A stretch of DNA of 64,000 nt, taken from positions 448,001 through 512,000 of the forward strand of contig CAVOKF010000003.1 of assembly GCA_963696385.1 (NCBI GenBank), in the 5' to 3' direction. The DNA comes from an uncultured delta proteobacterium. Its GTDB lineage: Bacteria; Myxococcota_A; Polyangia; Polyangiales; Polyangiaceae. Under the pieces are notes generated by a model. That model was not told where the DNA came from, did not search any database, and worked only from the letters and a program-made list of their open reading frames with translations. Shown here piece after piece: positions 16,953-33,527 of the stretch (its first letter is position 1; the number at the start of each line of letters is the position of its first letter). Position numbers and translations under genes: made by a program.

Positions 16953-16992
16953 TTGCCCCCGTAGCTCAGAGGATAGAGCAGCGGTTTCCTAA
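16953..16992 (+). repeat. attL: 40-bp direct repeat containing the 5' half of tRNA-Arg(CCT)
   Basis: TTGCCCCCGTAGCTCAGAGGATAGAGCAGCGGTTTCCTAA is identical to 33094-33133; identity stops at the end of the anticodon loop. Confidence 0.97.
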
Positions 16993-17185: not shown

Positions 17186-17585
17186 GGTCCCTCGTGGGGA
17201 CTTCACGAAGTGAGGCAATAATGAAGTCCGTCTGAGGGACATCATTCGGCTGGCCGCGTCGTCACGCAAGCGACCATGAAGCTCGCGGAGCTCTACGCCG
17301 AGGAGACGAGCGCCAGTCCTGGGGTCAAAGCGCAATTATTTGATCGCGAACAAGCAATTCGTCCCGGCAAGGCGGCCGTAGCGGAGGTGCACGAGAAAAA
17401 GATGCTGGCTTGTACCGCCAATTGGCTCTCATGATGCCCCCCATCAATTGCGGAGCCATACGCAATGATTCCCGCATGTTAGCGACGATCTGGTCTAGCT
17501 AAGAATTGTAACCGTCGCTGCGCAAAACGGGTGGGAGATTCGAGCTCTTTCGGGGTCGTCCGATTCGGTGCCACTAGGTTCGGTC

Positions 17586-17840
17586 ATGCCCGAACCCGCA
17601 TTACTTCCGTTGCGTGACGCCCTCGTCAGGTATCCAGGCATCTCGCTGGAGACCGCCCGCCGCCTCATACGCGACGGGAAATTACCAGCCGTCCTCATTG
17701 GCCGAATCTATCTGGTCAGTCCGGCCGACGTCGCGAAACTGTTCGCGCCCAAGCTGCGCAATGGACCGGCGCCCCGCAAGCCGCGAGAGAGCGAGACCGC
17801 CAGGGCCGAGCGGCAGTTGACGGAGGCGGGTCTCCGCTGA
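17586..17840 (+). CDS. Excisionase-like helix-turn-helix protein (HTH_17)
   Basis: GISLETARRLIRDGKLPAVLIGRIYLV winged-HTH pattern next to attL. Confidence 0.85.
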   Translation: MPEPALLPLRDALVRYPGISLETARRLIRDGKLPAVLIGRIYLVSPADVAKLFAPKLRNGPAPRKPRESETARAERQLTEAGLR

Positions 17841-17845
17841 CGCAC

Positions 17846-18301
17846 ATGAGTACTCCGCCATCGTTCGTAATCTATTGCGACTCGCGCGAGCAAACTCCGC
17901 CTCCGTTTCCTGATGGTGTCGTACTCGAGCGGGTCACTATGTCCGAGGCGGATTACACGTCGCCGAAGCTACAGGGGATCGGAGTCGTCGAACGCAAATC
18001 CACATCCGACTTCGCGAGCTCGATCACGCACTCGAGAGAGAGATTCGACGACGAGGTCCGGCGACTGAAGGCGTATCGCTGGAAGTGCATCATCGTCGAG
18101 GGGAGCCTCCACGACGTCTATCGATGCACGACCGCGCACCCGCATTCGATCATCGGCTCTATTGCATCGTTCTATGCGCGGGCTGATATCCCGACGATTT
18201 TCGCGGGCAATGCCGCAGGTGCGGGCCGACTCATCGCTGGCATTCTCCGTCGCTGGGAGGAGCGCATATTGGCAGAGCGCGCCGAGAGGGGGGCCGCATG
18301 A
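17846..18301 (+). CDS. ERCC4/XPF-domain nuclease
   Basis: DSREQ, ADY, VVERKSTSDFASSI, IIVEG. Confidence 0.88.
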   Translation: MSTPPSFVIYCDSREQTPPPFPDGVVLERVTMSEADYTSPKLQGIGVVERKSTSDFASSITHSRERFDDEVRRLKAYRWKCIIVEGSLHDVYRCTTAHPHSIIGSIASFYARADIPTIFAGNAAGAGRLIAGILRRWEERILAERAERGAA

Positions 18302-18510
18302 CTCGAATGCTTGGCTCGCCTGAAAATCAAGCGCGCGTATACGCCAGACGCGCCGCTGGCAAACCGCTCGACGATAACGATCTCGCGGTGATCGGCGAGC
18401 TGCCGGACGACCCTTCAGACGGTTGCATATCAGCACTCGAGCTCGGCGACCAGACTCCCGAGGACATCGCCGAAATCGAACGCCTCGTCAAAGAAAAGAT
18501 GGGCGCGTAA
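18298..18510 (+). CDS. Small hypothetical protein
   Basis: ATGA and TAATG overlaps with both neighbours. Confidence 0.6.
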   Translation: MTRMLGSPENQARVYARRAAGKPLDDNDLAVIGELPDDPSDGCISALELGDQTPEDIAEIERLVKEKMGA

Positions 18511-20078
18511 TGGCCAGCATAACGCCGATCGAGAGCAGGCGCATATTGGAATTGGTCGACGGATTTCCGAAGACGGATTCTGGCAATGCCGAAAGGCTTA
18601 TCGCGCTCAGCGGTCGAGAGCTCCGATACGTGCGTACGTGGTCGAAGTGGATCGCCTGGAATGGCAAACATTGGACGCTGGACGAAGGCGCTCCGCACCG
18701 CGCAGCGAAGGCCATGGCCCGCGCGCTCATGAAGCAGGCGCAGCGAATCGATGATCCAGACGCGAGAAGCGCGGCCGTCCGATATTCACTCAAGTGCGAG
18801 GGCAAGGCGTCGATTGAGGCAATGGTGTCCTTGGCTCGTTACGAGCTGGCGGTTGCCATTGGCCACGAAGAGCTCGACGCCGATCCGTGGCTGCTCTGCG
18901 TTCGCAACGGCACAATCGACCTCAAAACGGGTGAGCTTCGGCCGCATCGGCGTGAGGACCTCATCACCAAGATTGCGCCCATTGACTACGACCCGGCCGC
19001 GACATGCAATCGGTTCGAGCGATTCGTATCCGAGATCATGGCGGGCGACGCTGCGCTCGTCACATTCATTCACCGGTTTCTCGGCTACTGCATGACCGGC
19101 GACGTTCGCGAGCACATTCTCGCCTTCTGGCACGGCGAGGGCGGCAACGGCAAAAGCATGCTCGCCGATCTCGTTCTCTTCGTTATGGGCGATTACGCCT
19201 GCAAAGCAGCGCCGGACCTTCTTTTCAAGGGTGAACACTCGGAGCGTCACCCGACCGAGCTTTGCGACTTGTACGGGCGGCGACTCGTCGTTTGCAACGA
19301 GACGACGAGCGGGCGCTCGTGGGACGAGGCGACGGTGAAGGACATCACCGGCGGCGACCGCATTCGAGCGCGGCGCATGCGCGAGGATTTTCGGGAGTTC
19401 AGTCCGAGCCATAAGCTGCTCGTTTTCGGGAACCATCGACCGCGTATCCGATGCGTAGACAAGGCGATGGAGCGACGGCTCCGACTCGTGCCGTTCGCCG
19501 TCAGCTTCATCGGACGTGAGGACAAGGACCTCAAGCAAGCGCTCAAGGCCGAGGGCCCTGGCGTGCTGGCATGGCTCGTCCGTGGATGCCTTCAGTGGCA
19601 GGCCGAGGGCCTTCCCGACGTCGCCGCGGTCCGCGACGCGACGCAAGCCTATCTCCGCGACGAAGACACACTCGGTCAATTTTTCGACGGCGAGTGCGTC
19701 TTCGACCCGACGGCCAAGATCAGCCGCAAGGAGCTCCGAGACCGCTATGTGGCGTGGTGCGACGACCGCGACGAGCGTCCTGTCAGTCCAAAAACGATCG
19801 CGGATGCCATCACAAGGCGCGCCGTCGTCCCGCGCAAGGTTTGGACAGCGAAGGGGCCTCGTGACGGATGGGCGGGAATTCGGCTCGCAAATGAGGCCGA
19901 ACGAACGACCGCTAGCGACATAGTGACGCCTAACGAGGAAATCCCGGTTCAACGCGATCAGAACGTTTCTCGTGAGATAACCCGGGAATTGCCGACTATG
20001 CCCACTAGCTCGCTAGACGGCGACCAAGAGGACTTCGGCGACTACCTCGAGCGCGAAGGAATTGGGGGTGAGGAGTGA
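18510..20078 (+). CDS. P4-family D5-like SF3 helicase with no N-terminal primase domain
   Basis: TDSGNAERL (D5_N), NGTIDLKTGEL, GEGGNGKS, VKDITGGDRIRARRM, RRLRLVPF. Confidence 0.92.
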   Translation: MASITPIESRRILELVDGFPKTDSGNAERLIALSGRELRYVRTWSKWIAWNGKHWTLDEGAPHRAAKAMARALMKQAQRIDDPDARSAAVRYSLKCEGKASIEAMVSLARYELAVAIGHEELDADPWLLCVRNGTIDLKTGELRPHRREDLITKIAPIDYDPAATCNRFERFVSEIMAGDAALVTFIHRFLGYCMTGDVREHILAFWHGEGGNGKSMLADLVLFVMGDYACKAAPDLLFKGEHSERHPTELCDLYGRRLVVCNETTSGRSWDEATVKDITGGDRIRARRMREDFREFSPSHKLLVFGNHRPRIRCVDKAMERRLRLVPFAVSFIGREDKDLKQALKAEGPGVLAWLVRGCLQWQAEGLPDVAAVRDATQAYLRDEDTLGQFFDGECVFDPTAKISRKELRDRYVAWCDDRDERPVSPKTIADAITRRAVVPRKVWTAKGPRDGWAGIRLANEAERTTASDIVTPNEEIPVQRDQNVSREITRELPTMPTSSLDGDQEDFGDYLEREGIGGEE

Positions 20079-20635
20079 CCGCCCCGACCTGCCTTTGGCC
20101 TAGTCCCGGAATGGCAGGCCCCTTCGCTGTTCTCGATATCCCCTGCAAGGACATCGATGCCACAACGGTTCAGCAAACCGTTGCAGACGCTTGTTTTCAG
20201 CGCCTTTCCTCGTCAAAGGACGATATAGCGAATCGTCCTGCGAAACAGCCCGCGGAATCATTGATGATTTTGGCGCTGGCCAACGTACTCGAGCCTGCCC
20301 CGTATCCGCGGCTCAGCGGACCCCTCGGCGGGCGGAAGCGCCGCATGGTGCGGCGACTCGCGACGGCGACCGGCGTGGTGCCGGAGGAAGTCTCCGGTCC
20401 GGACAAGGCTGTTTCACACCGCATGAATCACGGCCGTCGCCGCTTGAGGATTACGCGTTTCCCGATTGGAGGATTACCCCATGAGACGTCGCAAACGACA
20501 TAAGGCCTCTCAGGTGCGCCCTGGCGAGCGCGCGAACAGGGTGCCGCCGCCAATCGAGGTGCCGCTCCGGTTGCCGCCATTGCCCCGCGAGTTTGTCGCC
20601 CTCCGCGCCGACGAGCGCGTTGCAGGCAAGGTCAA

Positions 20636-21181
20636 ATGACACCCGAACAGAGGGTCGACCCGCGGCGGTTTATTCTAACGCCGGAGCGCCGAGCGATCGT
20701 GCTCGCCTCAGCGACTATTCGGGCCGCTGCCGAGTCGATCGGGGTCACACGGGCCACCCTGAGCTCAGCCGTCAACCGCGACGCCGCGCTGGTCGCAGAG
20801 CTCGCGCGCAAGCGCCAGGCCGAGCGCGATGCAGTCCGCGAAGCCGCGCCGCCGAAGCCGCGCAAGCAGCGCGATGCCGACTCGTTCGACAGCCGTCCGG
20901 TCATTCGAGCCGAGCAGATCGAGGGTGCTGTCCTCGCCGCCGCGACGGCCGTTACGGGCGCGCTGCCGGCCGTCGACAGCCGAGGTCCGCGCTGGGCCGG
21001 TGGAGAGCATTGGTCGCGGCTTAGGGCCGCGTTCCACTGCTTGCCGGAGATGGCCCGGCGCGAGGCAATCACTCGCCTCGTCCTCGAGGAAGCCGAGCGC
21101 ATCGAGGCGGATCGCGGCCTCGAGTGGCGCCCCGCCGAACGACACCAGGGCCAAGTGAGGGCGGGGTCACATGATCACTGA
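20636..21181 (+). CDS. HTH-containing hypothetical protein (possible late-gene regulator)
   Basis: IRAAAESIGVTRATLSSAV HTH pattern. Confidence 0.6.
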   Translation: MTPEQRVDPRRFILTPERRAIVLASATIRAAAESIGVTRATLSSAVNRDAALVAELARKRQAERDAVREAAPPKPRKQRDADSFDSRPVIRAEQIEGAVLAAATAVTGALPAVDSRGPRWAGGEHWSRLRAAFHCLPEMARREAITRLVLEEAERIEADRGLEWRPAERHQGQVRAGSHDH

Positions 21182-21668
21182 CCTCTTGACGGACGAGCTG
21201 ACGCAAGCGCACCTCGCGCTGCTTTTGCACCAGCTTTGGGATGAGTACTTCGAGCCCAGGCCGCGGCCTTTGCTGTTGCCGGTGATCGATGAGGGACTTG
21301 TGGAGTGCGCCAACATCCAGCGCAAGGGCACGATCTTCGTGATCACGTTCGACCGGACGACGCTGGATCTCGGTGTGGGCCGGCGGTGGCTGGTCGACGT
21401 TGCTCTGCATGAGCTCACGCATGTGCCGAGCTATCCCGAGCGCGCCTCGCACGGGCCGGGCTTTTACGCCGAGTGCTGCCGTCTTTCGCCGCTCATAGGC
21501 CTCGAGTTTTTGCCGTGCGAGGACACGGTCCACGAGTGGCCCCACAACATGCGACCCGATGGCTTTTACGAGGGGACTTATTTCGACGCGGACAGGATCG
21601 GATCGGCGTGGCTTGTCGACGTTCGCGATGCGTTCGCGTCGGTGGCCGCGCTCGAGGTGGACCCATGA
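21171..21668 (+). CDS. SprT-like zinc metalloprotease
   Basis: LHELTH followed by SHGPGFYAEC. Confidence 0.75.
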   Translation: MITDLLTDELTQAHLALLLHQLWDEYFEPRPRPLLLPVIDEGLVECANIQRKGTIFVITFDRTTLDLGVGRRWLVDVALHELTHVPSYPERASHGPGFYAECCRLSPLIGLEFLPCEDTVHEWPHNMRPDGFYEGTYFDADRIGSAWLVDVRDAFASVAALEVDP

Positions 21669-21757
21669 CTGCGCTCGATCATGGCAGCAATCATCCCGAC
21701 CGTGAACACGGCCAGACCCATGATGGCAAGGCCAACGATGTAGGTGTACTCGCCCAT
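21578..21757 (-). CDS. 59-aa single-TM membrane peptide (not in ORF track)
   Basis: RBS AGGAG; MGEYTYIVGLAIMGLAVFTVGMIAAMIERS...; TAA at 21580-21578. Confidence 0.5.
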   Translation of the reverse strand: MGEYTYIVGLAIMGLAVFTVGMIAAMIERSHGSTSSAATDANASRTSTSHADPILSASK

Positions 21758-21759
21758 GT

Positions 21760-21969
21760 TCAGCTCCTGCTCCTGGTTCGCTCAATGATGGCGCCGAAAC
21801 CGGCAAAAAACAACCCCAAACCAAGAACGACCACGGTCCACCTCCACGACGGTAAGCCGGCCGCGATTGTCTTTTCTAGCACGCCCAGGGCCGCGACGAG
21901 CACACCAGCCTCCCGCAGAAAGTCGCCCGACATCTCTGCCAAGCCTTTAGGCGCCCCCATCGGGGCCAT
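21760..21969 (-). CDS. Small 2-TM membrane protein
   Basis: FLREAGVLVAALGVLE...WTVVVLGLGLFFAGFGAIIER; start uncertain. Confidence 0.55.
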   Translation of the reverse strand: MAPMGAPKGLAEMSGDFLREAGVLVAALGVLEKTIAAGLPSWRWTVVVLGLGLFFAGFGAIIERTRSRS

Positions 21970-21993
21970 TCCTAGCACATCCGTGGGGACTCC

Positions 21994-22566
21994 ATGGCAA
22001 TAAGGAGTGGACACGGCAACGGCGCCGGCGTGCCCCGGATCGAGGTCCTGCCTCCCGACGAGCTGCCGGATCCGGCTCCGATACCGGACGAGAGCGGTCC
22101 GATTGTGCGCCGCTCGAACGGCACGTTCGCCGATGGGGAGTCCGCCAGGCGGGCCGGTCGCAAAGGTGGCCAGCGCACGCAGCTATTCAGCCGCATCCTT
22201 CGTTCGTTGGGTTTGGCCGAGCTCTCGGCTGACCACGCGTTCTACGCCTACGAGGTGGCCGGCAAAGACTTTGCCGATGCCTACATTTCCCGCCTCACGA
22301 CCATGTTTGGCGAGTGCGGCGAGGGACCCGCCAGCATCGTGAAGACCGCCGGGATTCAGCTCGCATCGAGTCGTTACCTCTACGACCAGGGCAAGCTGAC
22401 GGGCGACGCCGAGCTCCTGGGCCAAGCGTCCAAGATGGGCAACGACCATCGCCAGAACATGCTTGCGAGTTACGAGCTCGCCGCACGGGAAGCTCAGGCG
22501 CGCGAGGCCTCCGTTCCAGACGGCGTCGATGCCCACTGGTGGTCGGACAAGAAGGGCAAGCGATGA
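21994..22566 (+). CDS. Putative terminase small subunit
   Basis: Directly upstream of TerL with ATGA overlap; RRSNGTF..ARRAGRKGG basic motif, then helical body. Call is mainly positional. Confidence 0.5.
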   Translation: MAIRSGHGNGAGVPRIEVLPPDELPDPAPIPDESGPIVRRSNGTFADGESARRAGRKGGQRTQLFSRILRSLGLAELSADHAFYAYEVAGKDFADAYISRLTTMFGECGEGPASIVKTAGIQLASSRYLYDQGKLTGDAELLGQASKMGNDHRQNMLASYELAAREAQAREASVPDGVDAHWWSDKKGKR

Positions 22567-24323
22567 AGTTCACCGAATTCACCGACGACATCGGCCTGAG
22601 CCTCACGCCGGCACAACGTGTACTCTGCAAGGTTTCGTTTGATGGGACCGACCCTTGTGCGCTTGAGGGCGCGGAGCGGGAGCTTGCGCGAGTTCTGTTC
22701 GGCGAAGTCGATACGGTGCCCGCGTTGGCCCGGCGCACGATCGTGCTGACCCTTGGCCGAGGAAGCGGAAAGACGACCATCGCAGCGGCGTACGGTCTCT
22801 ATCGAATGGTGACCGCGGACCTCTCGAGGTGCGGGCCCGGTGACATTCCGCACATGATCGCGGTCGCCCCGACGACGCGAACGGCAAAGCTCGTCGTTGG
22901 CATGGCCCAGGAGCTCACGCAGTGGTCGAAGGCATTGCGTCGGCGCGTCGAATCGGAGACAAAAGAAGGATTCATTCTTCGACGTCCCGACGGCAAGCGC
23001 GTTGCTTTCTCGGCGTTCGCGGCGAGCCGTGGCGGCGCATCCGCCCGCGGGCTCTCGGTCCTCTCGTTCGTGCTCGACGAGAGTGAATTTTTTCAGAGCG
23101 ATGCGGAGTTCGTGGTCACGGACCGTGACGTCTACGGCGCGATCGTCCCCCGTCTGATGGCGGCCGGCGCGGGCGTACTGATCTCGACGCCGTGGCCCGT
23201 GCCCACCATGACGGCCGAACTGCGCGAGAAGAATTTCGGCGCCCCCTCGACGGCTCTGTGCGCAGTGGGTCCGACGCTCGTCATGCGCCCCGGCGACGAA
23301 ACTATCGAGTCGCTGGTCGCCGCCGAGCGAGAGCGCGACCCAGACAACGCGGCGCGCGAGTTCGATTGCGACGCGTCCGCGACCAGCGGCTCGAGCACTC
23401 TCTTTACCGCCGAGATGATCCGCGCATGCGTCGACATGAACCTGGCGCAGCCGTCGCCACGCGTCGGAAGCTATCACCCGAGTTTCGGTTGCGACGTCGC
23501 GTTCGTGCGCGACTCGAGCACCCTCGTCGGGTCGGTCGACAAGGAAGGCGTCGTCGAGGTGCAAACGATTCTTGAAAAGAGGCCAGAGAAAGGCCAGCCA
23601 CTTCGCCCAAAAGAGGTCGTCGACGACTTCGCGAAAGTGATTACTGATTATGGCGCGGTGAGTGTTTGGGGTGATATTCACTATAAGGAATCGGTCCGCG
23701 AACATCTCGAACCGTATCAGATCGAGTTTTGCGACGTGCCCGCTGGCGCAAACGGCAAACAGGAGACGTACCTGCACGCCCGCAAGATGCTAAGCGAGGG
23801 CCGCGTCCGCCTCCCGAACAATCCGCGCTTTCTTGCTCAGTTGAGAAGCATCGTCAGCAAGCCGATGTCCGGCGGAGGTTTGCAGATCAGCGCACCGCGC
23901 CGCGCTGGACTCGCACACGGCGACATCGTCTCGGCGTTCGTGGCGTCGCTCTGGGCTGTCAAACAGGGAGAGCAGCCGGACTGGTTGCGAGCGATGGTCG
24001 CCCTGGATCAGCGGAACGGCGTGTTGTTCGACGGCGGCAATTCTAAGATGTGCAATGAGCGATACGTGAATGCGTTGGCCGCGATTATCGGGTGGCGGAA
24101 GCGCCATGGCAATCTGCGAAAGGATACGCACACGCTCGACGTGGGCAACGACGGTACATATACATTGGTACACGCCAATTATCTGAACGGTGTAGCGCGG
24201 TGGCGTTCCAAGGACCGTTTCGGCAACGTGGTCTTCGATCCGCATTGCGAGCCGGGCTTCAAACATCAGATGGCTTGGATCTGGACAGAACTTTACTCGA
24301 ATCGTGGAGGCGAAGCGCCATGA
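22563..24323 (+). CDS. Terminase large subunit with C-terminal extension
   Basis: LTPAQ, Walker A LGRGSGKTT, RGLS..Walker B FVLDESEF, ISTP, RNase-H-like GCDVAFVRD and HGDIVSA. Confidence 0.9.
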   Translation: MKFTEFTDDIGLSLTPAQRVLCKVSFDGTDPCALEGAERELARVLFGEVDTVPALARRTIVLTLGRGSGKTTIAAAYGLYRMVTADLSRCGPGDIPHMIAVAPTTRTAKLVVGMAQELTQWSKALRRRVESETKEGFILRRPDGKRVAFSAFAASRGGASARGLSVLSFVLDESEFFQSDAEFVVTDRDVYGAIVPRLMAAGAGVLISTPWPVPTMTAELREKNFGAPSTALCAVGPTLVMRPGDETIESLVAAERERDPDNAAREFDCDASATSGSSTLFTAEMIRACVDMNLAQPSPRVGSYHPSFGCDVAFVRDSSTLVGSVDKEGVVEVQTILEKRPEKGQPLRPKEVVDDFAKVITDYGAVSVWGDIHYKESVREHLEPYQIEFCDVPAGANGKQETYLHARKMLSEGRVRLPNNPRFLAQLRSIVSKPMSGGGLQISAPRRAGLAHGDIVSAFVASLWAVKQGEQPDWLRAMVALDQRNGVLFDGGNSKMCNERYVNALAAIIGWRKRHGNLRKDTHTLDVGNDGTYTLVHANYLNGVARWRSKDRFGNVVFDPHCEPGFKHQMAWIWTELYSNRGGEAP

Positions 24324-24655
24324 GAACTCGTATCGGAAGGCGCCAACCGTACATCCCCGCGCGACGGCCGATCGGGGCGGACCGCTTCGACGGTCTCATT
24401 CCGGAATTGATCCAGAACGTGATGCAAACGGACCTCGCCGAGGTACGGGGGATCCGTGGTGAGCTCGAAGAATCGGAGGAGCACAACTTCCACTTCGAAT
24501 CGTGGCCGGACGGTCGAATGGCGGTCAGCACGATGGCCAAGAACCCCGAGGTCGCCAAGTGGCATACAAAGCTCAAGGGCGACATCGAGTTCACCGACAA
24601 CGCAAGCAACTTTTTTAGGGCTTGTGCATACAGAATACGGGCGCGCAACTCATAG
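24320..24655 (+). CDS. Hypothetical protein resembling the TerL C-terminal extension
   Basis: ATGA overlap with TerL; shared DG..VAxWxxK..GxxxF pattern. Confidence 0.6.
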   Translation: MRTRIGRRQPYIPARRPIGADRFDGLIPELIQNVMQTDLAEVRGIRGELEESEEHNFHFESWPDGRMAVSTMAKNPEVAKWHTKLKGDIEFTDNASNFFRACAYRIRARNS

Positions 24656-24681
24656 GCGATTTACCATTATCGAGGGTTCAC

Positions 24682-26097
24682 ATGACGACCAATGTCCAGC
24701 TACCCAGGATCCCAACCCGCACCGTCGGCGGCATGTTGGTGCACAGCCAAGAAGAGGGCATACGCCGGATCCGTGAGGCAGCCGCGGCTCATCGGCCCGC
24801 CTTACCCAAGGTGGCGAAGCTCGTCACGTTGGACGAGAAAATACTCCGCGACATCAATCCAATGATCGACCCCGAATCGGTGGTTCCGTTTTGGGGACCG
24901 CTCCCGACGATCATCCGACAGGGCGACGTCGAGATCGCACGGCTCGAACACATCGGCGACGCGCGACCGACGCACGATCTGTGTGCCGAGCTGCGAGGGC
25001 TCGCGGCGGACTCCGGTGTCGAAGACGACCTCAGCGAAACGTCCGAGGACCATGTTACCGAAGGTGAGGCAGCGGTCCGGGCGATCTTGCGATTCCGGCC
25101 CGAGCTGACCGGCATTCGCCGCTTCTCACGGCCCGATCTGGCGGTCGATATGTGCGCCGTGGACGAGGGTCGCGCGTGGGGACTCAGTGCAGAGCGGATC
25201 GCGGCCCTGGTCGGGCACGCGGTCACGTCGGGGCGTCGATTGAAGGCGCCGTGCTCTCGTGCTCGCGAGCTCGAGGCCGCGGCACGGATCGCGAACGAGA
25301 AGATCGAACAAGAGGCGCAGGCGGCGCAGCGCGCGTACGCCGAGGCGAACCGCGTCGAGTCCCGAACGATTAAGTCGCTTGGGTTGCAAGGCTTGCAGAT
25401 CGATTTTGGGTTGCCCGGGGTGTCGCGCCCCGCGGAACTCGGTGCGGCTACTTGGATCGATAACCTCGCCGTGTGGCGTTCGATCCCTGGGATCTCGATC
25501 CCTCAGGTCAAATTCGCGGTGGGGTCCACGCTCGATCCCAATACGATCGTCACGGCCAACGCTGCGATGCTCGCGTCTGTCGGATTTCCAGACATTGAGA
25601 CATACGGTCTCGTCGTCCGCATCCTTCAAAAATACCTACCGGACAGACGCACTGGCCCGGTCGACACGTTTTCGAAAGTACATCTCGAGGCCGCGCGCGA
25701 ATGCGTACGCCCGCTCATGCCGTATGTGTACTCTACACGTACAGGACTCGGGTACATGCCTCGACTTGTCACGGAGATCGCGGTCAGGGGCTTCATGGTC
25801 TCTCCACCCGCCGCGGTCGCGTTGATCTGGTCCGAGCTCTTGGATCAAGAGAGCATGTCGGCACATCGTCAGATTCCGGTGCAGGCGGGCGCAATCGGGA
25901 CAACGCATCCGCCGATCCGGATCTTGCAGGATCCCAATATGCAGCAGATCGACAAGATCGACCTGCGAGTGACTAGGCCTGTTGAGCGGACGTACGCCGG
26001 GGCGACGAGCAAAGATCAGTTGGCCTCCTGGGCCGCGGAGGCCGCAAGCGGCGGCATCGTCGAAGTCGGATCTCTACTTTCGAAGAAAGGTAAGTGA
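24682..26097 (+). CDS. 471-aa hypothetical protein
   Basis: Long ORF in the operon with RBS GAGGG; no family recognised. Confidence 0.7.
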   Translation: MTTNVQLPRIPTRTVGGMLVHSQEEGIRRIREAAAAHRPALPKVAKLVTLDEKILRDINPMIDPESVVPFWGPLPTIIRQGDVEIARLEHIGDARPTHDLCAELRGLAADSGVEDDLSETSEDHVTEGEAAVRAILRFRPELTGIRRFSRPDLAVDMCAVDEGRAWGLSAERIAALVGHAVTSGRRLKAPCSRARELEAAARIANEKIEQEAQAAQRAYAEANRVESRTIKSLGLQGLQIDFGLPGVSRPAELGAATWIDNLAVWRSIPGISIPQVKFAVGSTLDPNTIVTANAAMLASVGFPDIETYGLVVRILQKYLPDRRTGPVDTFSKVHLEAARECVRPLMPYVYSTRTGLGYMPRLVTEIAVRGFMVSPPAAVALIWSELLDQESMSAHRQIPVQAGAIGTTHPPIRILQDPNMQQIDKIDLRVTRPVERTYAGATSKDQLASWAAEAASGGIVEVGSLLSKKGK

Positions 26098-26102
26098 ACG
26101 CC

Positions 26103-26837
26103 ATGGGACAAAATATGAGATACGAATCGACCTCGCGAGACCCCGCACCCAACCCCGAATACGAGAGGGGCGTCGCAGACGTTCGTCGCAAAGAGCTTGC
26201 GCGGATCGGTTACGAGATCCCCGCGAACGCGTCGCCAGCCTACGTCGACGGGGTCTACGGGGTCGCCGTCAAGAAGGGGCAGGTTCGCTCGGACGCCGCG
26301 CCGCGATTTTTGGATCCGCTCGATCTCGTCTTCGCTGGAGGCGTCGAGGCGCGCTCGGACGCGATGCTGACCGAGAGCGGAGTAGAGACGAACACCGCTA
26401 CTCAAGAGGAGACGCTCGCCTCAGCCGACGAACAGCGACAGGCCGGATTCGCCCAAATGCAGGCAAAGTTCGAACGCGGCCTCGAAAATGCGACCTATGG
26501 GTATCGTCCGGCACGGGGGCACGACGGCTCGTTTCCCGGGGGGTCAAGGGGCAATAACGCGAGCACGCCACCGGGCGATCCGGAGTGGGGTCAGCGCGCT
26601 CGGGAGTCGGCTCCGCGAGTTCCGCGCGAGCAAACAGAGCACGGGCGCTCTGCCTTCGGTGGAGGCAACGAGGGCTCTTTCGAGGGATCGTTCGGCGGGG
26701 GGATGGCCACGCCTGACGTCTTCGGCGAGGGCGACTCGACGACGGCCGACGCTCGCGACGCCATGATCGCGCGCGCGCGCGACGCGTGGCGAACCCCGCA
26801 AGGCCCGCGGGCGATGGGTCGCACGCGAGGTGCATGA
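26103..26837 (+). CDS. Hypothetical protein, phage scaffold (DUF2213 C-terminus)-like
   Basis: SPAYVDGVY, RSDA twice, ADARDAMIARARDAWR. Confidence 0.55.
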   Translation: MGQNMRYESTSRDPAPNPEYERGVADVRRKELARIGYEIPANASPAYVDGVYGVAVKKGQVRSDAAPRFLDPLDLVFAGGVEARSDAMLTESGVETNTATQEETLASADEQRQAGFAQMQAKFERGLENATYGYRPARGHDGSFPGGSRGNNASTPPGDPEWGQRARESAPRVPREQTEHGRSAFGGGNEGSFEGSFGGGMATPDVFGEGDSTTADARDAMIARARDAWRTPQGPRAMGRTRGA

Positions 26838-26840
26838 GCC

Positions 26841-27164
26841 ATGACGTCAGCCGTGTTTGACCGTCGTGACGCCTTGACCGGGACACCAGTTGTGCCGGAG
26901 CCGACGGCGCCGATGCAAACCGACGATGAATTTCGCGCGACCGCGGAGACCAAGCGGGATTCCCTCACGTTTCGCAAGGACGCCGCCGACGTCCTCCGAT
27001 CGCTCAAGGCGCTGCGCCCAGGCGACAGGCGAAATCTGTACGCATGGCTATTTTGGAATGAGGTTGCAGACCTAGGACCCAATGCCGAAATCACGTTCGG
27101 CGGAATGCGTATCCGAACCGGCGCCAACACGCTCGCCGGGGCACCTGTGGAGAAAAACAAATGA
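26841..27164 (+). CDS. Hypothetical protein
   Basis: RBS GAGG; in operon. Confidence 0.6.
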   Translation: MTSAVFDRRDALTGTPVVPEPTAPMQTDDEFRATAETKRDSLTFRKDAADVLRSLKALRPGDRRNLYAWLFWNEVADLGPNAEITFGGMRIRTGANTLAGAPVEKNK

Positions 27165-27337
27165 GCCAAGAATTCGTATGTTCAATCGACGCGACCGTGC
27201 CAGCCCCTACCGCGGAAGCCCAGGTCAAACTCGAGGTCGCCGCGTCCGTTGACGCCTCGGTGGATCTCGCTCCGGCCACACCGGCCGGGTTACGATGGAA
27301 CGAATCAAATTGGGATGAAGCGACGTGGGGGGTCTAG
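27161..27337 (+). CDS. 58-aa protein with W-x4-W-x4-W tail (not in ORF track)
   Basis: MSQEFVCSIDATV...LRWNESNWDEATWGV-stop; ATGA overlap; fills the gap between neighbours. Confidence 0.6.
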   Translation: MSQEFVCSIDATVPAPTAEAQVKLEVAASVDASVDLAPATPAGLRWNESNWDEATWGV

Positions 27338-27339
27338 CC

Positions 27340-28605
27340 ATGTCCGGCCAACCCCCAATCGGGACCTGGGCGACGACGACCGACTACCCTCCGGGTTCGA
27401 GCCCGTGGAGCGGTAATCCCACGAAGATCCAGCCAACCCAAACGTATTGGATTCCGGCGACCGGCGTGAGCGCCCCCGAACACAATTACATCATCAACCA
27501 GCTCTACGCGGAACTTGCCGCCGTCGAAGCCGCGGGCGGATCGGCGCTCGTTGCGCAGAACTGGCAATCTGTCATCGCCGCGGGGCCGGCGAACGCGAAC
27601 GCCCTCGCGTGGAATCCAATATTGAGCAGCGGCGGCGCGTTCATCACCGTCGAAAAGAACTCTGGGCCGCTCTACCAGTTCGTATACAACAGCGGCGCGG
27701 ACCTCGTTTGGACGACGCTTGGCTCGACATTCAACGTGAACTCGAGCTCGCCGAACGTTACGGCACTCGCGTGCGGTCCCGCGCAAGGCGTAACATGGGC
27801 GAGTTTTATCAATTCGAGCAACGTCGGATATCTATGGTCGTGCACCGTCGGCGGTTCTACGGACGCGCTGCTAGGTACAGGTAATGTATCCAACATGTAT
27901 CTAGCCGCTGCCGCAACGTCCGGCGTCGACTGGGGCGTTCTCGCTATCGCATCCGGCACGTCCGGCGATTCAGCGCTGTACTTCCTGACCGCCACCGGCG
28001 CGACGGGCTTGTCGACCGGCCTCACCGAAGCGCAATGGGCCGTTGCGTCGAACGGGTCGCTCGTCGTCGCAGTTGGCACCGACCGGATCGTGTATTCCAT
28101 ATCGTCCTCCAGCGGAACGTCCGGCACCGTCTCAACAGCGAATATCGCCTCCGTGCTCGGTACCGATCTGCCAATCTCCATGGCGTACGGCACGAGTACC
28201 ACGTTCCCCTCCGGCGCGTTCATCCTTTGCTGCTCCACAACGACAAGCGGACAGCGTCGCTATTACGCGAGTCAAACCGGTACCGGCGCGACTTGGGTTT
28301 CGCTCGGCGTCGCGACGACCTCGGCGGCGGCTGAAGTCTCGCAAATCGTCGCGTGCGGAAGCCTTTGGCTCGGACTCGTATCGCTGGCCGGCGGGGTCGC
28401 TGGAGTGATCATGGCCCCGAACGGCATCGACTTCGGTGGATCGGCCACGGGCAACTGGCAATCGACCCAGACTCGCGTGGTCCCGAGCGGATCCGCGGAA
28501 CCGATGATCGCCGCTGGGCCCACCCAGGCCGCGATTGCGATGGCAGATGGCGGCCCAACGTTCCGGTTCAGCCAGATCAGCGGGCCCGGCACGGCGTTGA
28601 CGTGA
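27340..28605 (+). CDS. Tail-fibre/receptor-binding-like structural protein
   Basis: N-terminal W..PTKIQP..W.P..SAPEHNYIINQL anchor-like segment; Ser/Thr/Gly-rich beta-strand body. Confidence 0.55.
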   Translation: MSGQPPIGTWATTTDYPPGSSPWSGNPTKIQPTQTYWIPATGVSAPEHNYIINQLYAELAAVEAAGGSALVAQNWQSVIAAGPANANALAWNPILSSGGAFITVEKNSGPLYQFVYNSGADLVWTTLGSTFNVNSSSPNVTALACGPAQGVTWASFINSSNVGYLWSCTVGGSTDALLGTGNVSNMYLAAAATSGVDWGVLAIASGTSGDSALYFLTATGATGLSTGLTEAQWAVASNGSLVVAVGTDRIVYSISSSSGTSGTVSTANIASVLGTDLPISMAYGTSTTFPSGAFILCCSTTTSGQRRYYASQTGTGATWVSLGVATTSAAAEVSQIVACGSLWLGLVSLAGGVAGVIMAPNGIDFGGSATGNWQSTQTRVVPSGSAEPMIAAGPTQAAIAMADGGPTFRFSQISGPGTALT

Positions 28606-28637
28606 CCATGGCGTCGCACCACCAGCAGGAGTACGCA

Positions 28638-29087
28638 ATGCGCAGCAGCAGGTTTTTTCCTCTCCTCATCCTCAGCGCTCTCGTCATCACGGCGGCCGTC
28701 GCGCGAATCGCAAGCGCGCAAGTCGTCCTACTCAACAATTTCCAGGGCCCGGAGGTCGTCGGACCCTTCACCACTGTTGGCTCCGGCAACTACCAGGTTG
28801 CCCAATTCACCGTCCTCCCGAATCACAATGTATACGTGAGTATCGGGTGCGACGCCATCGACACCGTAAACACCGCGGCCAATTCCTGGCGCCGAGACGT
28901 CTACGTGTTCGATAATAGCGGCGGCATTGCGCCAGCCGTCTTCCAGACACCCGAAAACTACACGACGAGCATCGCCATATCTAGCAATTACGGAACCCCG
29001 GGGGGCAATGCGCTAACGCTCGATTTTGAGACGACGGCATCGGACGCGCTTCGCGTCATATGTGTACTGTACTCGTTCTCGAATTGA
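28638..29087 (+). CDS. Secreted beta-rich protein
   Basis: RBS AGGAG; signal peptide ending ASA-Q. Confidence 0.7.
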   Translation: MRSSRFFPLLILSALVITAAVARIASAQVVLLNNFQGPEVVGPFTTVGSGNYQVAQFTVLPNHNVYVSIGCDAIDTVNTAANSWRRDVYVFDNSGGIAPAVFQTPENYTTSIAISSNYGTPGGNALTLDFETTASDALRVICVLYSFSN

Positions 29088-29452
29088 CATGGCCTCGCAC
29101 CGTCCAATTGGCCTTTCGCGTTGGGAGCTTGAGCACGGCGCTCAGCCCGAGGCTTGCCCGATTCCTGAGAGGGTCGAGGGATTTTGGCTCGGACCTGCGG
29201 GAGCGTGGCGCGATAGGGCGATAGCGGCGGAAGCGAAGTTGCTAGAGTTACTTCGCAGTCTTCGCAGCGCGTAAACAGGCCACTGCGAAAAATCGTATAT
29301 CGGTCACTTGACGGGATTGTCGATAGGCAGTATATCTATTCACGTCGACGGGACGCTAAGCCGAGGACGACGCAAGGCCTGCCAAAGTGGCCACGGAGCG
29401 AGAGCAGTCACGGCTCAGAAAGTGACGGTCCAGCTGGGCGACAGCCGAGCCA

Positions 29453-29496
29453 GAAACCCCGAGCGGCGAAAGCTCCCGGGGTTTCGCCCATTTTCT
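29453..29496. terminator. Hairpin terminator, possibly bidirectional
   Basis: GAAACCCCG/CGGGGTTTC stem followed by CCCATTTTCT, between convergent units. Confidence 0.55.
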
Positions 29497-29968
29497 ACTG
29501 TTCTCCTGGCCCCCTTTTCGGAGCGCTGAGCGCCTGATTCTTGGCCGCGACAATAAGGCCGGCGAGCTCGGCCAGGCCGTCATTGCCTGCTTGGCCTGAG
29601 AATTTGACTCCACTCCACTCGATGTTCGGCGTCATATTTTTTGTGAACCCCTCGCGATGAGGGCGCCCACCGACCACGATAGTTCCGTCGCTTCCGTGAC
29701 GCGCGAAAGATACCTCGACCTGATACCAGCGCGTGCTGTCCGCGTCGCGCGCCGCGTCTTGGTTGAGCGTTACCGATAGCACGATACCGGCGGATGGCTG
29801 CTTGCTGATCTCGTATGTATGAGACCCGGCGACGGCTTCTTCGAGAGCCGTGATTAGGTCTTTGATGCCATTTACTGGCCATCGTACGTCCAGATTTAGT
29901 TCGCCTTGGACGTTCACACTTTCAGTTCCGTCTAGGATTTTTACTGCGCGCTCGATGTCGTACGCCAC
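29495..29968 (-). CDS. Hypothetical accessory protein
   Basis: 157-aa ORF with RBS GGAGG and protein-like composition. Confidence 0.7.
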   Translation of the reverse strand: MAYDIERAVKILDGTESVNVQGELNLDVRWPVNGIKDLITALEEAVAGSHTYEISKQPSAGIVLSVTLNQDAARDADSTRWYQVEVSFARHGSDGTIVVGGRPHREGFTKNMTPNIEWSGVKFSGQAGNDGLAELAGLIVAAKNQALSAPKRGPGEQ

Positions 29969-29983
29969 CTGCCCCTCCGTTCG

Positions 29984-30259
29984 CTAAGTCGCTTCCCCAG
30001 CGTGTTGCTTCCTGCACGGCCCCATGGAGAACGATAGGCATTTGTCGCAATACTGCGGCCCGTTCGTTGGCTGCCGAGATCCGGTGCTCTTGGCTTCTGC
30101 GCGCTCCGCAGACTCCGCCTCTTGCACGAGTGCACCGACCACGGCATCGGCGATCTTGATCGCCCTCCGCGCGATTCCCGTTGCGTCGCCGTTCGGGTCT
30201 AACGCGGATCCGGACACGGCGCGGAGAATCAATTCTGTACGAAGTTGATGTTCGTTCAT
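29984..30259 (-). CDS. Small hypothetical protein with CxxC..C..H tail
   Basis: RBS GGAGG; YCDKCLSFSMGPCRKQH. Confidence 0.6.
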   Translation of the reverse strand: MNEHQLRTELILRAVSGSALDPNGDATGIARRAIKIADAVVGALVQEAESAERAEAKSTGSRQPTNGPQYCDKCLSFSMGPCRKQHAGEAT

Positions 30260-30287
30260 GCTTCCCCTCCGTTCTGACCCCGTATCT

Positions 30288-30494
30288 TTACGGTTTTGGG
30301 TTCATATCGTCCCATTTTTTGATGAGTGGTTTGACTGTTTTCGTAGCTCTGCGTCGGAGCCAGTCGGCAACTTCAACGTCATCGATGCCGGCGACCCGCG
30401 CGAGCGCACCCAGTCTCTCCACGATCCATTGCAGGTCGGCCTTCGTAAGCTTCACTTCGTCATCCACCATGGCTGGCCCCTCCGTTCGCGCCAT
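30288..30494 (-). CDS. Small hypothetical protein (possible regulator)
   Basis: First gene of the leftward unit at the divergence point. Confidence 0.5.
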   Translation of the reverse strand: MARTEGPAMVDDEVKLTKADLQWIVERLGALARVAGIDDVEVADWLRRRATKTVKPLIKKWDDMNPKP

Positions 30495-30539
30495 GGTCTC
30501 ACCGCCTGACGGGTGGTCAACGAAAAGTTTGCGAGTGGC

Positions 30540-30568
30540 TTGCGCTCACGCGCTCACGCGCTTATGCT
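30540..30568 (+). promoter_or_regulatory. Sigma70-type promoter with GCGCTCAC tandem repeats
   Basis: TTGCGC-17 bp-TATGCT; GTG start follows the -10 after a 6-nt gap. Confidence 0.55.
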
Positions 30569-30574
30569 CTCATC

Positions 30575-30859
30575 GTGGCTGCAAAGAAGAAGGAGATCAA
30601 AGTGCAAATCACCGAACGCGCGCTGGTTCAACGCATCAACCGCAAGCTCGCGCCGAAGGCCGAAGACCCCCGTTCCCATAAACGATTGTGCAAGTCGAAG
30701 GGCTTTTACGACGGGCCCTTGAAGCACTTCAACGAGCTCGGGGAATTCTACGTCCTCGACCTAGGCACGAACACGGTCGAGCGCACCGACGTCGACATCG
30801 TGGAGCTCGCGAAGGAGCTCAACGCACTCGCCCCGTGGGAAGCGCTCGCAAGCAACTGA
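30575..30859 (+). CDS. Hypothetical phage-type protein
   Basis: ITERALVQRINRKLA...LAKELNALAPWE; follows the promoter. Confidence 0.7.
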   Translation: MAAKKKEIKVQITERALVQRINRKLAPKAEDPRSHKRLCKSKGFYDGPLKHFNELGEFYVLDLGTNTVERTDVDIVELAKELNALAPWEALASN

Positions 30860-30931
30860 CACGATAGCGCCCCCCGCGCCGCGCTAACGGCCGGGAGGCA
30901 TGGCCCAACCCCGAACGAACCGGAGTCGAAC

Positions 30932-31144
30932 ATGCAACCATTAGCCCATTTTCAAGCAGACGAACCGCCTACGCGCCCGACGGCGCATATCCCCGCATCC
31001 GCCCTCATCGCCTTCCGCCGCATCGGTCGGCTTGCGGAGCTGGCCAGCGAGCGGCTTTCGACCGACCCCGATGCGGACGCGATCCTCGAGGCCATCGGCG
31101 AAATGGAACGCATCCGCGAGATTTGCGCGGAGGTGGGCCGATGA
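30932..31144 (+). CDS. Small hypothetical protein
   Basis: RBS GGAG; in operon. Confidence 0.5.
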   Translation: MQPLAHFQADEPPTRPTAHIPASALIAFRRIGRLAELASERLSTDPDADAILEAIGEMERIREICAEVGR

Positions 31145-31443
31145 CGACCCGCCTAGCCCTCATCTTCGCCGCTGCCCTCGTTGGCTGCGGCGGCGCCGCC
31201 GAGTCCGAGCCGTCGCCCCCCGCGGTCGACTGCACGCTGTTTCCTGACGAGACGACCGAAGCGGAAACGAACCTGCCTCTATACATTACCGACGCCGGCG
31301 TGAACCTCGATGGGGCAGCATTGCCCGACGGGTGGGCGTTCGTACCGCCATTCGCCGAACCGGGTAACCTCGATAACTGCGGGTGCGGAGTATACGGGCC
31401 CGCGCCGTATTTTCTCGTCCTCGGCCTCTGCGGGAGCCACTGA
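31141..31443 (+). CDS. Small lipoprotein
   Basis: MTTRLALIFAAALVGC lipobox; RBS GGAGG. Confidence 0.65.
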   Translation: MTTRLALIFAAALVGCGGAAESEPSPPAVDCTLFPDETTEAETNLPLYITDAGVNLDGAALPDGWAFVPPFAEPGNLDNCGCGVYGPAPYFLVLGLCGSH

Positions 31444-31445
31444 CA

Positions 31446-31672
31446 TGAGCGCCCGACCGAACCACCATCGCGACGCTGCCGTCATGGCGACCATGCAGGC
31501 GAGATTCCGCGTCGACAACGCCGTCAAAATCTACGGCGCCCGCGTCGCCAAAGACGCAAACGCACGCGTCGCGATGACGCTGCTAGACATTCTCGATCCC
31601 ATGTTGCGCGCCATCGAGGGGCTATTGCACGAGCCTCTCGATCTCAGCGCCGCGCCCACCGAAGAGCCGTAA
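31446..31672 (+). CDS. Small hypothetical protein
   Basis: MSARPNHH... directly follows the lipoprotein stop. Confidence 0.45.
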
Positions 31673-31718
31673 CCGTAACCGAAAGGCCGAAACCGGGGCT
31701 TGCCCCGGTCCACGCGTT

Positions 31719-33527
31719 ATGCGCGTGCTGACGAGGCCGAACATGGGACGAGCGCTTTCCGGCACGGTCGAATGGCGAGGCACCCCGCCGCGGTGGTGGG
31801 CCCGCATCACGGTCCGCACCGAAGACGGCGGAACACGCCGAGTTTGGGTCGACCTCGAACGGCCGGACCTACGCGACACGCCCGACGACAAGCGGACGGC
31901 GAAACGGCTGGCCCTCAAGCGCGCCAAGCTCGCCGCACGCAAAACGTACGTCGGGGTCGAGCGGGCCGCGGCGCCCAGGGTCACGCTGGCCGAGCTCGAA
32001 GAACGGTGGTTCGCGTTGCTCGACAACGATCCGGACCTCAAGCCTGCGACCGTCGGCCGATACAAGGCGAGTTGGACCGGCATCCTTGCAAAGCTGGGCA
32101 AGCGCCCCGTGGCCGACCTGACGCCACCGATTCTGCGCACGTGGGTCCTAGAGCAACGCGCGGAGCGGTCCGTGTCGACTGTCCGCAACGACGTCAACGC
32201 TCTGACGCGGTGCTTCAAGGACGCGATCTCGCAGCGATGGGTCGCGCTGACGTCCAACCCAATGAAGGACGACTATCTCCGTAGCGCCGTCCCTTCGATG
32301 CAAATTCCCGAGGCCGACGAGATCGTACAGTGGTCGCGCGCCGAGCTCGAACGTCTACTCGCTTCGCCGCTCTCCGATCTGCACTTCGGGATGCTGCTCG
32401 TCAGTGTGACGACCGGCCTACGCGACGGCGAGCTTCACGGCTTGCGGTTCGCGGACGACGGCGCCGACGCGAAGTACCCCGACGTGCGCCGCCTGTACGT
32501 GCTCCGGCAAGCGCTCATGCCGCGCGACGCGAAGACCGAGGCATTCGGACCACCGAAAAGTAAATGGGGGAAACGCAAGGTGCCACTGCATTCCGCCGCT
32601 GCGGCATGGATCGATTGGTGGAAGGCCGAGGGGTGGGGGGCGTATGTCGGGCGCCAGCCCGAGGGCAGCGATTTCGTGTTCCCCAACGAGGCCGGCGCCG
32701 TTTGGCGCCCGCGCGCCGCGGAGCTCGTTCGCGACCTTCTCGCGGCGGCGGGCCTGCCCACCGCGTTCAAACTGACCGACGGCGAGACGGCGGATTTCAC
32801 TTGGCATGCGACACGGCGCACGTTCGCCTCCCTGCTCGCGGATGCCGGCGTGTCGGGCGAGACTTTGGACTACCTGCTCGGGCAGGCGCCGCACACCACG
32901 CGCGGCCGCCACTACCAAGCGCCCCCCATGACCGAGCTAGCGCGTGCCGTGGCCCTGCTCACCGTCGCTTTGCCATCGCGCCCAGGCGTGCCATCTTGCC
33001 ACCCTTCACGCCCGCCCCAATCGTCCCGTGAATCGTCCCAAGCCACCGAGGACCCACCCGCGACACACAAGAAAGCGCAATCATTCAGCACACTTGCCCC
33101 CGTAGCTCAGAGGATAGAGCAGCGGTTTCCTAAACCGTTGGCCGGACGTTCGAATCGTCTCGGGGGCGCCTTAGAAATCATTGGTGATTTTGCCTCCTGC
33201 ATAGTGCGACCCGCACTAAGACCCGCACCAAAATCCGCACTAAGACCAGCGGTTATGGTCCCCCCCGGAAATCGCGGTGGTTTGCAGGGTGATCCCGTCG
33301 ACCAAACTGTCCTCCAAACCGATGGTCGCGACCGCCGCTTGAAGTGTGGCGAGCGTCTGCGCTGTGTAGTGTTGCTGGGTTACGCCCGATCCCGCGTGCC
33401 CCATCAGGCGCTTGATGGTGCTCTCGGCAACACCCGCCTCGTTGAGCCACGTGGCGAAGCTGCGACGCGTCGCGTGCGCGGTGTACGGATGCCCCTCGTA
33501 GACGTCCGGCAGGCCCGCTGCGCGTAG
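31719..33527 (+). CDS. int: Tyrosine integrase; integrated form reads through attR and the tRNA
   Basis: Arm-binding-like N-terminus, GLRDGEL, PKS, WHATRR, LLGQ, RGRHY; no stop before att. Confidence 0.92.
   Translation: MRVLTRPNMGRALSGTVEWRGTPPRWWARITVRTEDGGTRRVWVDLERPDLRDTPDDKRTAKRLALKRAKLAARKTYVGVERAAAPRVTLAELEERWFALLDNDPDLKPATVGRYKASWTGILAKLGKRPVADLTPPILRTWVLEQRAERSVSTVRNDVNALTRCFKDAISQRWVALTSNPMKDDYLRSAVPSMQIPEADEIVQWSRAELERLLASPLSDLHFGMLLVSVTTGLRDGELHGLRFADDGADAKYPDVRRLYVLRQALMPRDAKTEAFGPPKSKWGKRKVPLHSAAAAWIDWWKAEGWGAYVGRQPEGSDFVFPNEAGAVWRPRAAELVRDLLAAAGLPTAFKLTDGETADFTWHATRRTFASLLADAGVSGETLDYLLGQAPHTTRGRHYQAPPMTELARAVALLTVALPSRPGVPSCHPSRPPQSSRESSQATEDPPATHKKAQSFSTLAPVAQRIEQRFPKPLAGRSNRLGGALEIIGDFASCIVRPALRPAPKSALRPAVMVPPGNRGGLQGDPVDQTVLQTDGRDRRLKCGERLRCVVLLGYARSRVPHQALDGALGNTRLVEPRGEAATRRVRGVRMPLVDVRQARCA
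33096..33168 (+). tRNA. tRNA-Arg (anticodon CCT); CCA not encoded
   Basis: Acceptor GCCCCCG/CGGGGGC, D-arm GCTC/GAGC, anticodon arm GCGGT-TTCCTAA-ACCGT, T-arm GGACG-TTCGAAT-CGTCT. Confidence 0.97.
33208..33243 (+). repeat. Three 12-bp tandem repeats (putative integrase arm sites)
   Basis: GACCCGCACTAA, GACCCGCACCAA, AATCCGCACTAA just 3' of the tRNA. Confidence 0.7.

Follow-up and report, generated by a model that had tools for sequence, protein, structure and literature searches.

What becomes of an integrase when the site at which it recombines lies inside its own reading frame? The question is raised by a 64,000-nt stretch of the genome of a soil myxobacterium of the family Polyangiaceae (contig CAVOKF010000003.1, positions 448,001 to 512,000; the whole stretch is called the window below), in which a phage-like element occupies the gene for tRNA-Arg(CCT) and carries its attachment site (att) within int, the gene for its tyrosine integrase (Int). 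The presence of att in this gene should give Int two C-termini, one encoded by the free circular element (the attP form) and one encoded when the element is bounded in the chromosome by its left and right junctions (attL and attR). An earlier reading of the window, here called the original prediction, had proposed that recombination swaps the Int C-terminus in this manner. Our analysis leads us to regard a switch similar to that of phage Mx8, in which integration exchanges the tail of Int, as the probable explanation of this arrangement.

The integrase reading frame at the two ends of the element

The element is flanked by an exact 40-nt direct repeat (Table 1) that holds two leader bases and positions 1-38 of the tRNA and stops in the anticodon loop (…TTTCCTAA). 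To the left of the attL copy lies the native upstream region of tRNA-Arg(CCT), and the DNA upstream of the intact tRNA at attR is the 3' end of int. This tRNA gene is present as a single copy among the 50 tRNAs of the 6.9-Mb genome. In a genome of the same genus (G214, locus L122), sequences with 86% identity to the left flank, 100% to the 40-nt core and 95% to the right flank enclose an intact tRNA-Arg(CCT) without the 16.1-kb element. Genomes G204 and G205, which are flagged as unpublished, support none of the statements made here. An insertion that regenerates its tRNA gene is recognised by a direct repeat of part of the tRNA, by an intact tRNA at one of its ends and by a relative in which the site is uninterrupted, and these sequence comparisons place the element in tRNA-Arg(CCT) with exact ends. 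The seven bases 5' of the G214 tRNA, CACACTT, match the attR leader of the window and differ from the attL leader. The agreement of the attR and G214 leaders suggests that the element carries the tRNA 5' half and a few leader bases with it, as if from a G214-like host. When window positions 33087-33095 are compared with the G214 locus, the identity of the element with a site of the G214 type would reach about 47 nt.

The reading frame of int was followed through both junctions. In the integrated form the open reading frame (ORF) 31719-33527 encodes 602 aa, has no stop codon before the repeat and reads …STLAPVAQRIEQRFPKPLAG… through the tRNA. At attL, ORF 16865-17185 continues in the same frame and reads …FAPVAQRIEQRFPNSGHP…LKDVSLDALLAELARRR-stop. 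Upon reconstruction of attP in silico, int joined across the repeat encoded 535 aa ending in ...LLAELARRR, with the repeat as codons 459-472. The tail ORF serves as the Int C-terminus solely in this excised form. The original prediction had described the 602-aa read-through, the attL frame running to its stop at 17185 and the 535-aa product of excision, and all three were recovered. Since att lies inside the int frame, recombination must exchange everything after codon 472, and the repeat, the open frames and the 535-aa join agree with the proposed swap of the C-terminus. The tRNA 5' half also doubles as coding sequence in the sense direction, as had been proposed; at the level of the ORF this is a fact. 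The read-through extension beyond the tRNA part is unconserved in relatives.

The catalytic part of Int is unaffected by the exchange. Residues 224-399 match Phage_integrase (PF00589) with an expectation value (E) of 4.7e-7, and R235, K280, R366, G388 and Y399 are invariant in an alignment of 30 sequences. The att core lies in frame downstream of the catalytic Tyr399. The statement that all catalytic motifs precede att is therefore correct, each of these residues being upstream of codon 459, and the integrated gene retains an intact core. The original prediction had also remarked on a glutamine at the position of the second histidine (LLGQ). This residue is indeed Q, as in 9 of the 30 aligned sequences (H in 21), which makes it a lineage variant and no defect.

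Forms resembling the predicted attP product occur naturally. Two relatives, P0013 (557 aa) and P0022 (559 aa), run ~95 residues past the att peptide. P0022 is encoded on a metagenome contig (L116) without a tRNA, where int is followed by the att peptide, the tail, an HTH_17 gene, an ERCC4 gene and a primase gene, which is the gene order found after attL in the window (identities to the window of 49% for int, 56% for HTH_17, 34% for ERCC4 and 67% for the primase). It carries the last codons and stop of a gene resembling ribonucleotide reductase (RNR), and the junction is the one that an unintegrated related element, or a tandem arrangement of such an element, should show. The tail DNA at attL aligns with the L116 tail directly after the two differing att cores, with 68% column identity. 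Homology that resumes right after different cores implies that the att core behaves as an exchangeable cassette between homologous flanks.

We looked for traces of excision in Logan contigs from four soil runs of one study, mapped on 16300-33700. These contigs show the integrated form, as X4 (16369-17260) spans attL and X2 (32862-33349) spans attR. Joints of the attP or attB type were not listed among the contigs of the four runs, and contigs cannot reveal rare forms. No RNA run was listed as containing this stretch. Loose contig ends at 33094-33099 are unlike the left flank of the window and probably derive from tRNA genes of other organisms. The recognisable genes of the element are all on the plus strand, with int at the far right end (Table 1).

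Table 1. Features of the integrated element and its target, in window coordinates
Feature	Position	Strand	Remarks
Whole integrated phage-like element, both att core copies included	16953..33133	+	16.1 kb; 40-nt repeat, phage-like gene content
attL core: displaced 5' half of tRNA-Arg(CCT) (2-nt leader and positions 1-38)	16953..16992	+	
Tail ORF, 64 codons and stop, in frame with the att-encoded peptide	16991..17185	+	
HTH_17 / excisionase-like gene, first after the tail	17568..17840	+	Pfam PF12728, E 2.8e-6; PHROG 66 (excisionase and regulator)
ERCC4-type nuclease	17846..18301	+	homologue at the same place in L116
D5_N/DUF5906 primase-helicase	18423..20078	+	67% identity to the L116 gene
Terminase large subunit-like ORF	22314..24323	+	PHROG 2, E 1.1e-16
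Integrase: N-terminal and catalytic domains (to Tyr399), post-Tyr helix, low-complexity linker up to att	31719..33093	+	
attR core: int codons 459-472 (…LAPVAQRIEQRFP…) and 5' half of the functional tRNA	33094..33133	+	
tRNA-Arg(CCT)	33096..33170	+	sole tRNA in window (ARAGORN)
Read-through extension of the integrated ORF: tRNA 3' half, spacer, antisense of integrase remnant	33134..33527	+	

Attachment peptides and tail modules across the family

We surveyed a sample of 201 genomes of the same myxobacterial family for related int loci. Records of related loci name Myxococcales and Polyangiaceae metagenome-assembled genomes. At E <= 1e-40, 26 of the 201 genomes returned 30 loci. In 20 of the 30, a tRNA lay at most 600 nt from the 3' end of int, and the int frame entered or crossed the tRNA in 18 of these 20. 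Five of the 20 tRNAs were read in sense, four of them entered by the int frame, and 15 in antisense, with 14 entered, so both geometries are found within the clade. The original prediction had raised the case that homologues stop before att; since the frame enters the tRNA in 18 of 20 loci, this case does not hold. We also rejected a mere loss of the stop codon in this copy. By eye, the sequence continues into an att-like peptide in 28 of the 29 homologues aligned, with the DNA checked for those that have loci; a homologue that ends earlier is P0004 (447 aa).

The ends of the homologues suggest several targets. The homologues in the protein collection (35 matches) are mostly 460-470 residues long and end in short recurrent peptides. 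Among these, …APVAQRIEQRFPKP… corresponds to tRNA-Arg and …GGVAEWSKAAVLKTADG… to tRNA-Ser, both in sense, and …GIRTPG…FKTAALNHSATPP corresponds to a tRNA in antisense; …HPSSGVEQRFRKP-stop is a further recurrent end. The peptide …QEHPIELPQFRHL-stop is read antisense to the 3' end of a convergent 1064-aa gene (locus L007) whose product ends in …CLNCGNSMGCS and, on reading its translation, looks like a class II ribonucleotide reductase. As …QEHPIELPQFRHL is the antisense of the last codons of this RNR-like gene, those elements integrate into its 3' end. A paralogue of Int in the same genome as the window, on contig C5, is read in antisense through tRNA-Arg(TCT); the other att end of this paralogue was looked for and not found. 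Among viral contigs, one distant match was obtained with the family alignment and none with the sense-class alignment. Collectively, these loci show att inside int to be a clade-wide design in one myxobacterial family, in which the in-frame cassette can be exchanged between a sense tRNA, an antisense tRNA and the 3' end of an RNR-like gene.

Two observations concern individual members of the clade. The ends in …QEHPIELPQFRHL-stop belong to a large sub-group, seen at L007, where int (2952-4385, plus strand) and the convergent gene (4343-7537, minus strand) overlap, and also at L005 and L006/L086. In genome G172, the integrases at L095 and L111 read …HFRKP, which is anticodon-loop-like, and ~30 residues on …RIPKPKVAGPIPAGGAN, which looks like a tRNA 3' half in sense. 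No tRNA was called near either locus, and their att region may be composite or tandem.

The sequence that follows att in the long forms is conserved. An iterative profile search among 180 family proteins defined a tail module, …ALAxAL..A..AG(R/Q)(W/F)D.V..L..EL.ARR… (…ALAxAL..A..AGRWDVVAQLARELEARR…), which is present in seven long-form cluster representatives at E <= 1.6e-18. A six-frame search detected the module in 108 of the 201 family genomes at E <= 0.01. At the 20 best loci, 19 matches fell in short frames (80-267 aa) and one in a 529-aa frame, and a tRNA-like stretch was located <=400 nt upstream in 15 of the 20, compared with 1 of 20 for the downstream control. At L164, the tail continues in frame from positions 1-38 of tRNA-Leu(CAA) read in sense, an arrangement that repeats the geometry of the window. 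Pairwise differences among 19 distinct copies of the module were 0.29/0.27/0.60 at codon positions 1/2/3, and 2233 of 4969 differing codon pairs were synonymous. The excess at third positions argues for selection on the protein. In the natural long forms the frame stays open for 90-120 codons. In the clade, as represented by these genomes, a conserved tail becomes part of Int only upon excision, and in every lysogen this widely conserved module lies physically apart from its enzyme.

Searches of the tails against Pfam and PDB sequences returned no named domain, and the P0013 tail region recovered only itself at E <= 0.01 in a set of 5.8 billion proteins. A second tail type is present in six long forms, in which the att peptide derives from a tRNA 5' half in sense (…APVAQWIEQRFP(K/N)(S/T)…). 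The sense-class long forms P0060, P0062, P0095 and P0102 read ...RFPN/KS..., in agreement with ...RFPNS... in the attP form of the window reconstructed in silico. Its profile (A4) gave only weak matches in the family genomes (17 of 201, best E 2.3e-4) and was not used as evidence.

Side observations on the module were made in one protein and in the genome of the window. In P0142 (591 aa), residues 426-502 form a recombination endonuclease VII domain (PF02945, E 1e-21) between the att peptide and the conserved tail. Outside the window, the genome holds copies of the tail module on contig C7 at 1407059-1407538 (E 1.5e-15) and on contig C5 at 1238063-1238503 (E 1.3e-7), both in short frames after tRNA-derived peptides. 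In the 75 kb around the C7 copy (C7:1395001-1470000), there was no tblastn match to the window Int and no tRNA by ARAGORN. The two copies probably represent attL ends left orphaned when their elements were lost or rearranged.

Relation to Mx8 and other known systems

An integrase changed by its own recombination reaction was reportedly described for Mx8 in the 1990s, and self-change of this kind is usually treated as a curiosity. Mx8 Int (533 aa) is 24% identical to the window Int over 333 aa, through the post-Tyr helix (pairwise BLASTP, E 5e-8). Residues 411-421 of Mx8 Int, GVARSTGLEPV, are encoded by DNA that corresponds, in reverse complement, to a tRNA T-arm, acceptor end and CCA; a further 112 residues come after this peptide. 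According to a review passage (PMC6070905), attP of Mx8 lies within int, and upon integration int acquires a new 3' end, by which the enzyme is modified, with altered specificity, but not inactivated; the same passage describes Mx9 as following a similar principle. The precedent cited in the original prediction is real, as judged from this passage and from the Mx8 sequence.

Similar to Mx8, the window element is a myxobacterial element with a tyrosine integrase, an attP towards the 3' end of int, beyond the catalytic Tyr, a tRNA target and a new int 3' end upon integration, and the total lengths of the two integrases, 533 and 535 aa, are alike. Contrary to Mx8, where the 3' end of the tRNA is read in antisense, the window frame reads the 5' half (positions 1-38) in sense. 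The crossover is placed at the anticodon loop, and both the tRNA 5' half and the DNA upstream of it come from the element and not from the chromosome. The Mx8 tail matched neither of the two tail profiles. The principle is thus already known from a distant homologue in the same bacterial group, and this element is a well-documented example of it that adds no new principle. What differs is the mirror-image geometry, and further value lies in the clade-wide picture, which suggests that a large integrase clade of one myxobacterial family uses self-change by recombination as its standard design.

Other systems share parts of this arrangement. In the archaeal integrases of the SSV type, as a passage of PMC7253208 describes them, attP lies in the gene, att is translated and differing att sequences occupy the same place; integration breaks the gene into two parts, both inactive, and the paper calls the type restricted to archaea. 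Unlike these 'suicidal' integrases, the window Int has all its catalytic residues upstream of att. The pelagiphage HTVC028P uses tRNA-Asn with a 40-bp core identical to the tRNA 5' end, but there the core lies in an intergenic region downstream of int, outside the reading frame (PMC8477408). The configuration filter of Islander rejects only a 5' fragment downstream of the tRNA gene, which implies that upstream 5' fragments are expected (PMC4383910). Integrated and excised states also give int different expression contexts in ICEKp1, in what PMC13023037 presents as promoter switching. That switch is transcriptional and acts via promoters, whereas here the coding sequence of Int itself changes.

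The tail of this element and the alternative explanations

We compared the 64-aa window tail, with the att peptide excluded, with the tails of P0022 and P0013 by Smith-Waterman alignment against 2000 shuffles of the window tail. The score with P0022 was 51, compared with 27.4 +/- 5.4 for the shuffles, of which 4 of 2000 reached it. For P0013 the score was 50 against 24.5 +/- 4.6, and 0 of 2000 shuffles reached it. When long gaps were made cheap, 0 of 2000 (P0022) and 1 of 2000 (P0013) shuffles reached the score of the window tail. The resemblance lies in a middle stretch (window …VANSGETREMGPLGLQGGTLKD… vs …LANRDGSQRTATLANKGGTLRD…) and in the last 14 residues (window VSLDALLAELARRR vs DLVDRILAEIERRR); between these two parts, P0022 and P0013 have about 29 residues that the window tail lacks. 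The original prediction had described the tail as compact, amphipathic and helical; by eye, an i, i+3/4 hydrophobic pattern is found only in the last ~14 residues of the window tail. The most fitting reading of the window tail is that of a deletion variant in which the putative last helix is retained. The original prediction had called for a check of tail conservation in homologous integrases, and its outcome is divided: the tails of the relatives are conserved and the window tail resembles those of P0022 and P0013, but the canonical module is unmatched in the window. The sole sigma-70-like promoter match in 16600-17300 is TTGACG-18-AATAGT at 17057-17086 on the plus strand, inside the tail ORF and upstream of the excisionase-like gene.

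In the explanation that we think probable, this is a phage-like element in the single tRNA-Arg(CCT) gene, with attP in int, whose integration swaps the Int tail. The free circular form encodes Int with its own tail (535 aa), and the integrated form encodes the same core followed by whatever succeeds att in the chromosome, here the tRNA 3' half and unconserved sequence (602 aa). The tRNA 5' half is read in sense, with the crossover at the anticodon loop, and the element supplies this half and moves the native upstream region of the tRNA 16 kb away. By analogy with Mx8, the tail may support integrative recombination. Its loss on integration may, by the same analogy, alter Int activity, such that the enzyme would be reversibly modified by its own reaction. 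The clade makes testable a general question, namely how a short C-terminal module would bias a tyrosine recombinase towards integration.

Several results weigh against this explanation. The window tail seems to be without ~29 codons kept in P0022 and P0013, the first helix included, and for this reason the tail may be impaired in this element. Searched with the canonical tail profile, the window tail reached E 0.54 (rank 3 of 1430 six-frame pieces), and with the larger tail profile E 7.3 (rank 19); with the second tail type there was no match. When metagenome contigs were scanned with the tail alone, 0 of 598 candidate stretches were confirmed as a relative. The G+C content at third codon positions (GC3) of the tail frame is 0.66, compared with 0.82 for the int core and 0.56 for adjacent intergenic DNA, and the frame is only weakly coding-like. 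On the side of the precedent, tblastn of the phage collection at 1e-5 failed to recover Mx8 Int, which indicates that the homology is distant, and the behaviour of the two Mx8 forms is known here from one review passage and from titles.

The alternative to which we give the most credence, although we consider it rather unlikely, is that the overlap is real but functionally neutral here. The core, to about aa 425, would do all the work without a state-dependent switch; the linker, att peptide and tail would be a disordered appendage, and the window tail a decaying remnant of an ancestral module. The failure of the window tail against both profiles and its appearance as a deletion derivative are consistent with this, as is the lack of conservation of the read-through extensions of integrated relatives beyond the tRNA part. 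The title of Tojo and Komano 2003 also states that the C-terminal segment of Mx8 Int is dispensable for excision. However, 64 codons remain open after att in the window and lead to a helix-like end, ...LLAELARRR, that aligns with the tail ends of P0022 and P0013, and across the family selection acts on the ancestral module at the protein level. With perfect att repeats and an intact int, the element looks young and active.

It is highly improbable, though less clearly so for the divergent tail of the window itself, that conservation to the right of att reflects arm-type sites of attP or an early promoter, with the open frame as a by-product of high G+C; a P' arm is generally expected to the right of the core in a lambda-type attP, the promoter-like site at 17057-17086 lies within the tail ORF and the tail GC3 is low, but the frame is open in the natural long forms and the codon-position differences among the 19 copies of the common module are those of a coding sequence.

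The sense geometry raises a separate testable question, that of how a single-copy tRNA is expressed after an element has displaced its promoter. Since the 5' half is read in sense, the regenerated tRNA is preceded by int and not by its native upstream region, which has come to lie in front of the tail ORF and the excisionase-like gene. A search of the DNA between int and the tRNA, with a promoter scan within int upstream of the tRNA, revealed neither promoter-like nor terminator-like sites. The geometry could add a switch at the level of RNA, combining tRNA supply with silencing of Int in the prophage, that would be impossible for antisense elements of the Mx8 type; we judge this addition to be distinctly unlikely. 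The integrated int transcript would run into a complete, foldable tRNA-Arg(CCT), and RNase P and 3' processing would release the only tRNA-Arg(CCT) of the cell from the int mRNA. This would leave an int message without a stop codon, the product of which would be tagged by transfer-messenger RNA (tmRNA) and degraded. In the excised state the tRNA 5' half alone would not form a tRNA fold, and full 535-aa Int would be made. If this were the case, the tRNA supply of the host would depend on transcription of the element, and Int would be silenced post-transcriptionally in the prophage only.

A last observation concerns the other side of the tRNA gene. Just 3' of tRNA-Arg(CCT), window positions 33240-33620 on the minus strand encode the C-terminal 126 aa of a second tyrosine integrase (Pfam E 2e-9), antisense to the tRNA and reading towards it. 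The G214 counterpart of this remnant is a 524-aa open frame adjoining the same tRNA. The presence of this second integrase beside tRNA-Arg(CCT) shows that two sub-lineages of the clade use one tRNA gene, from opposite sides.

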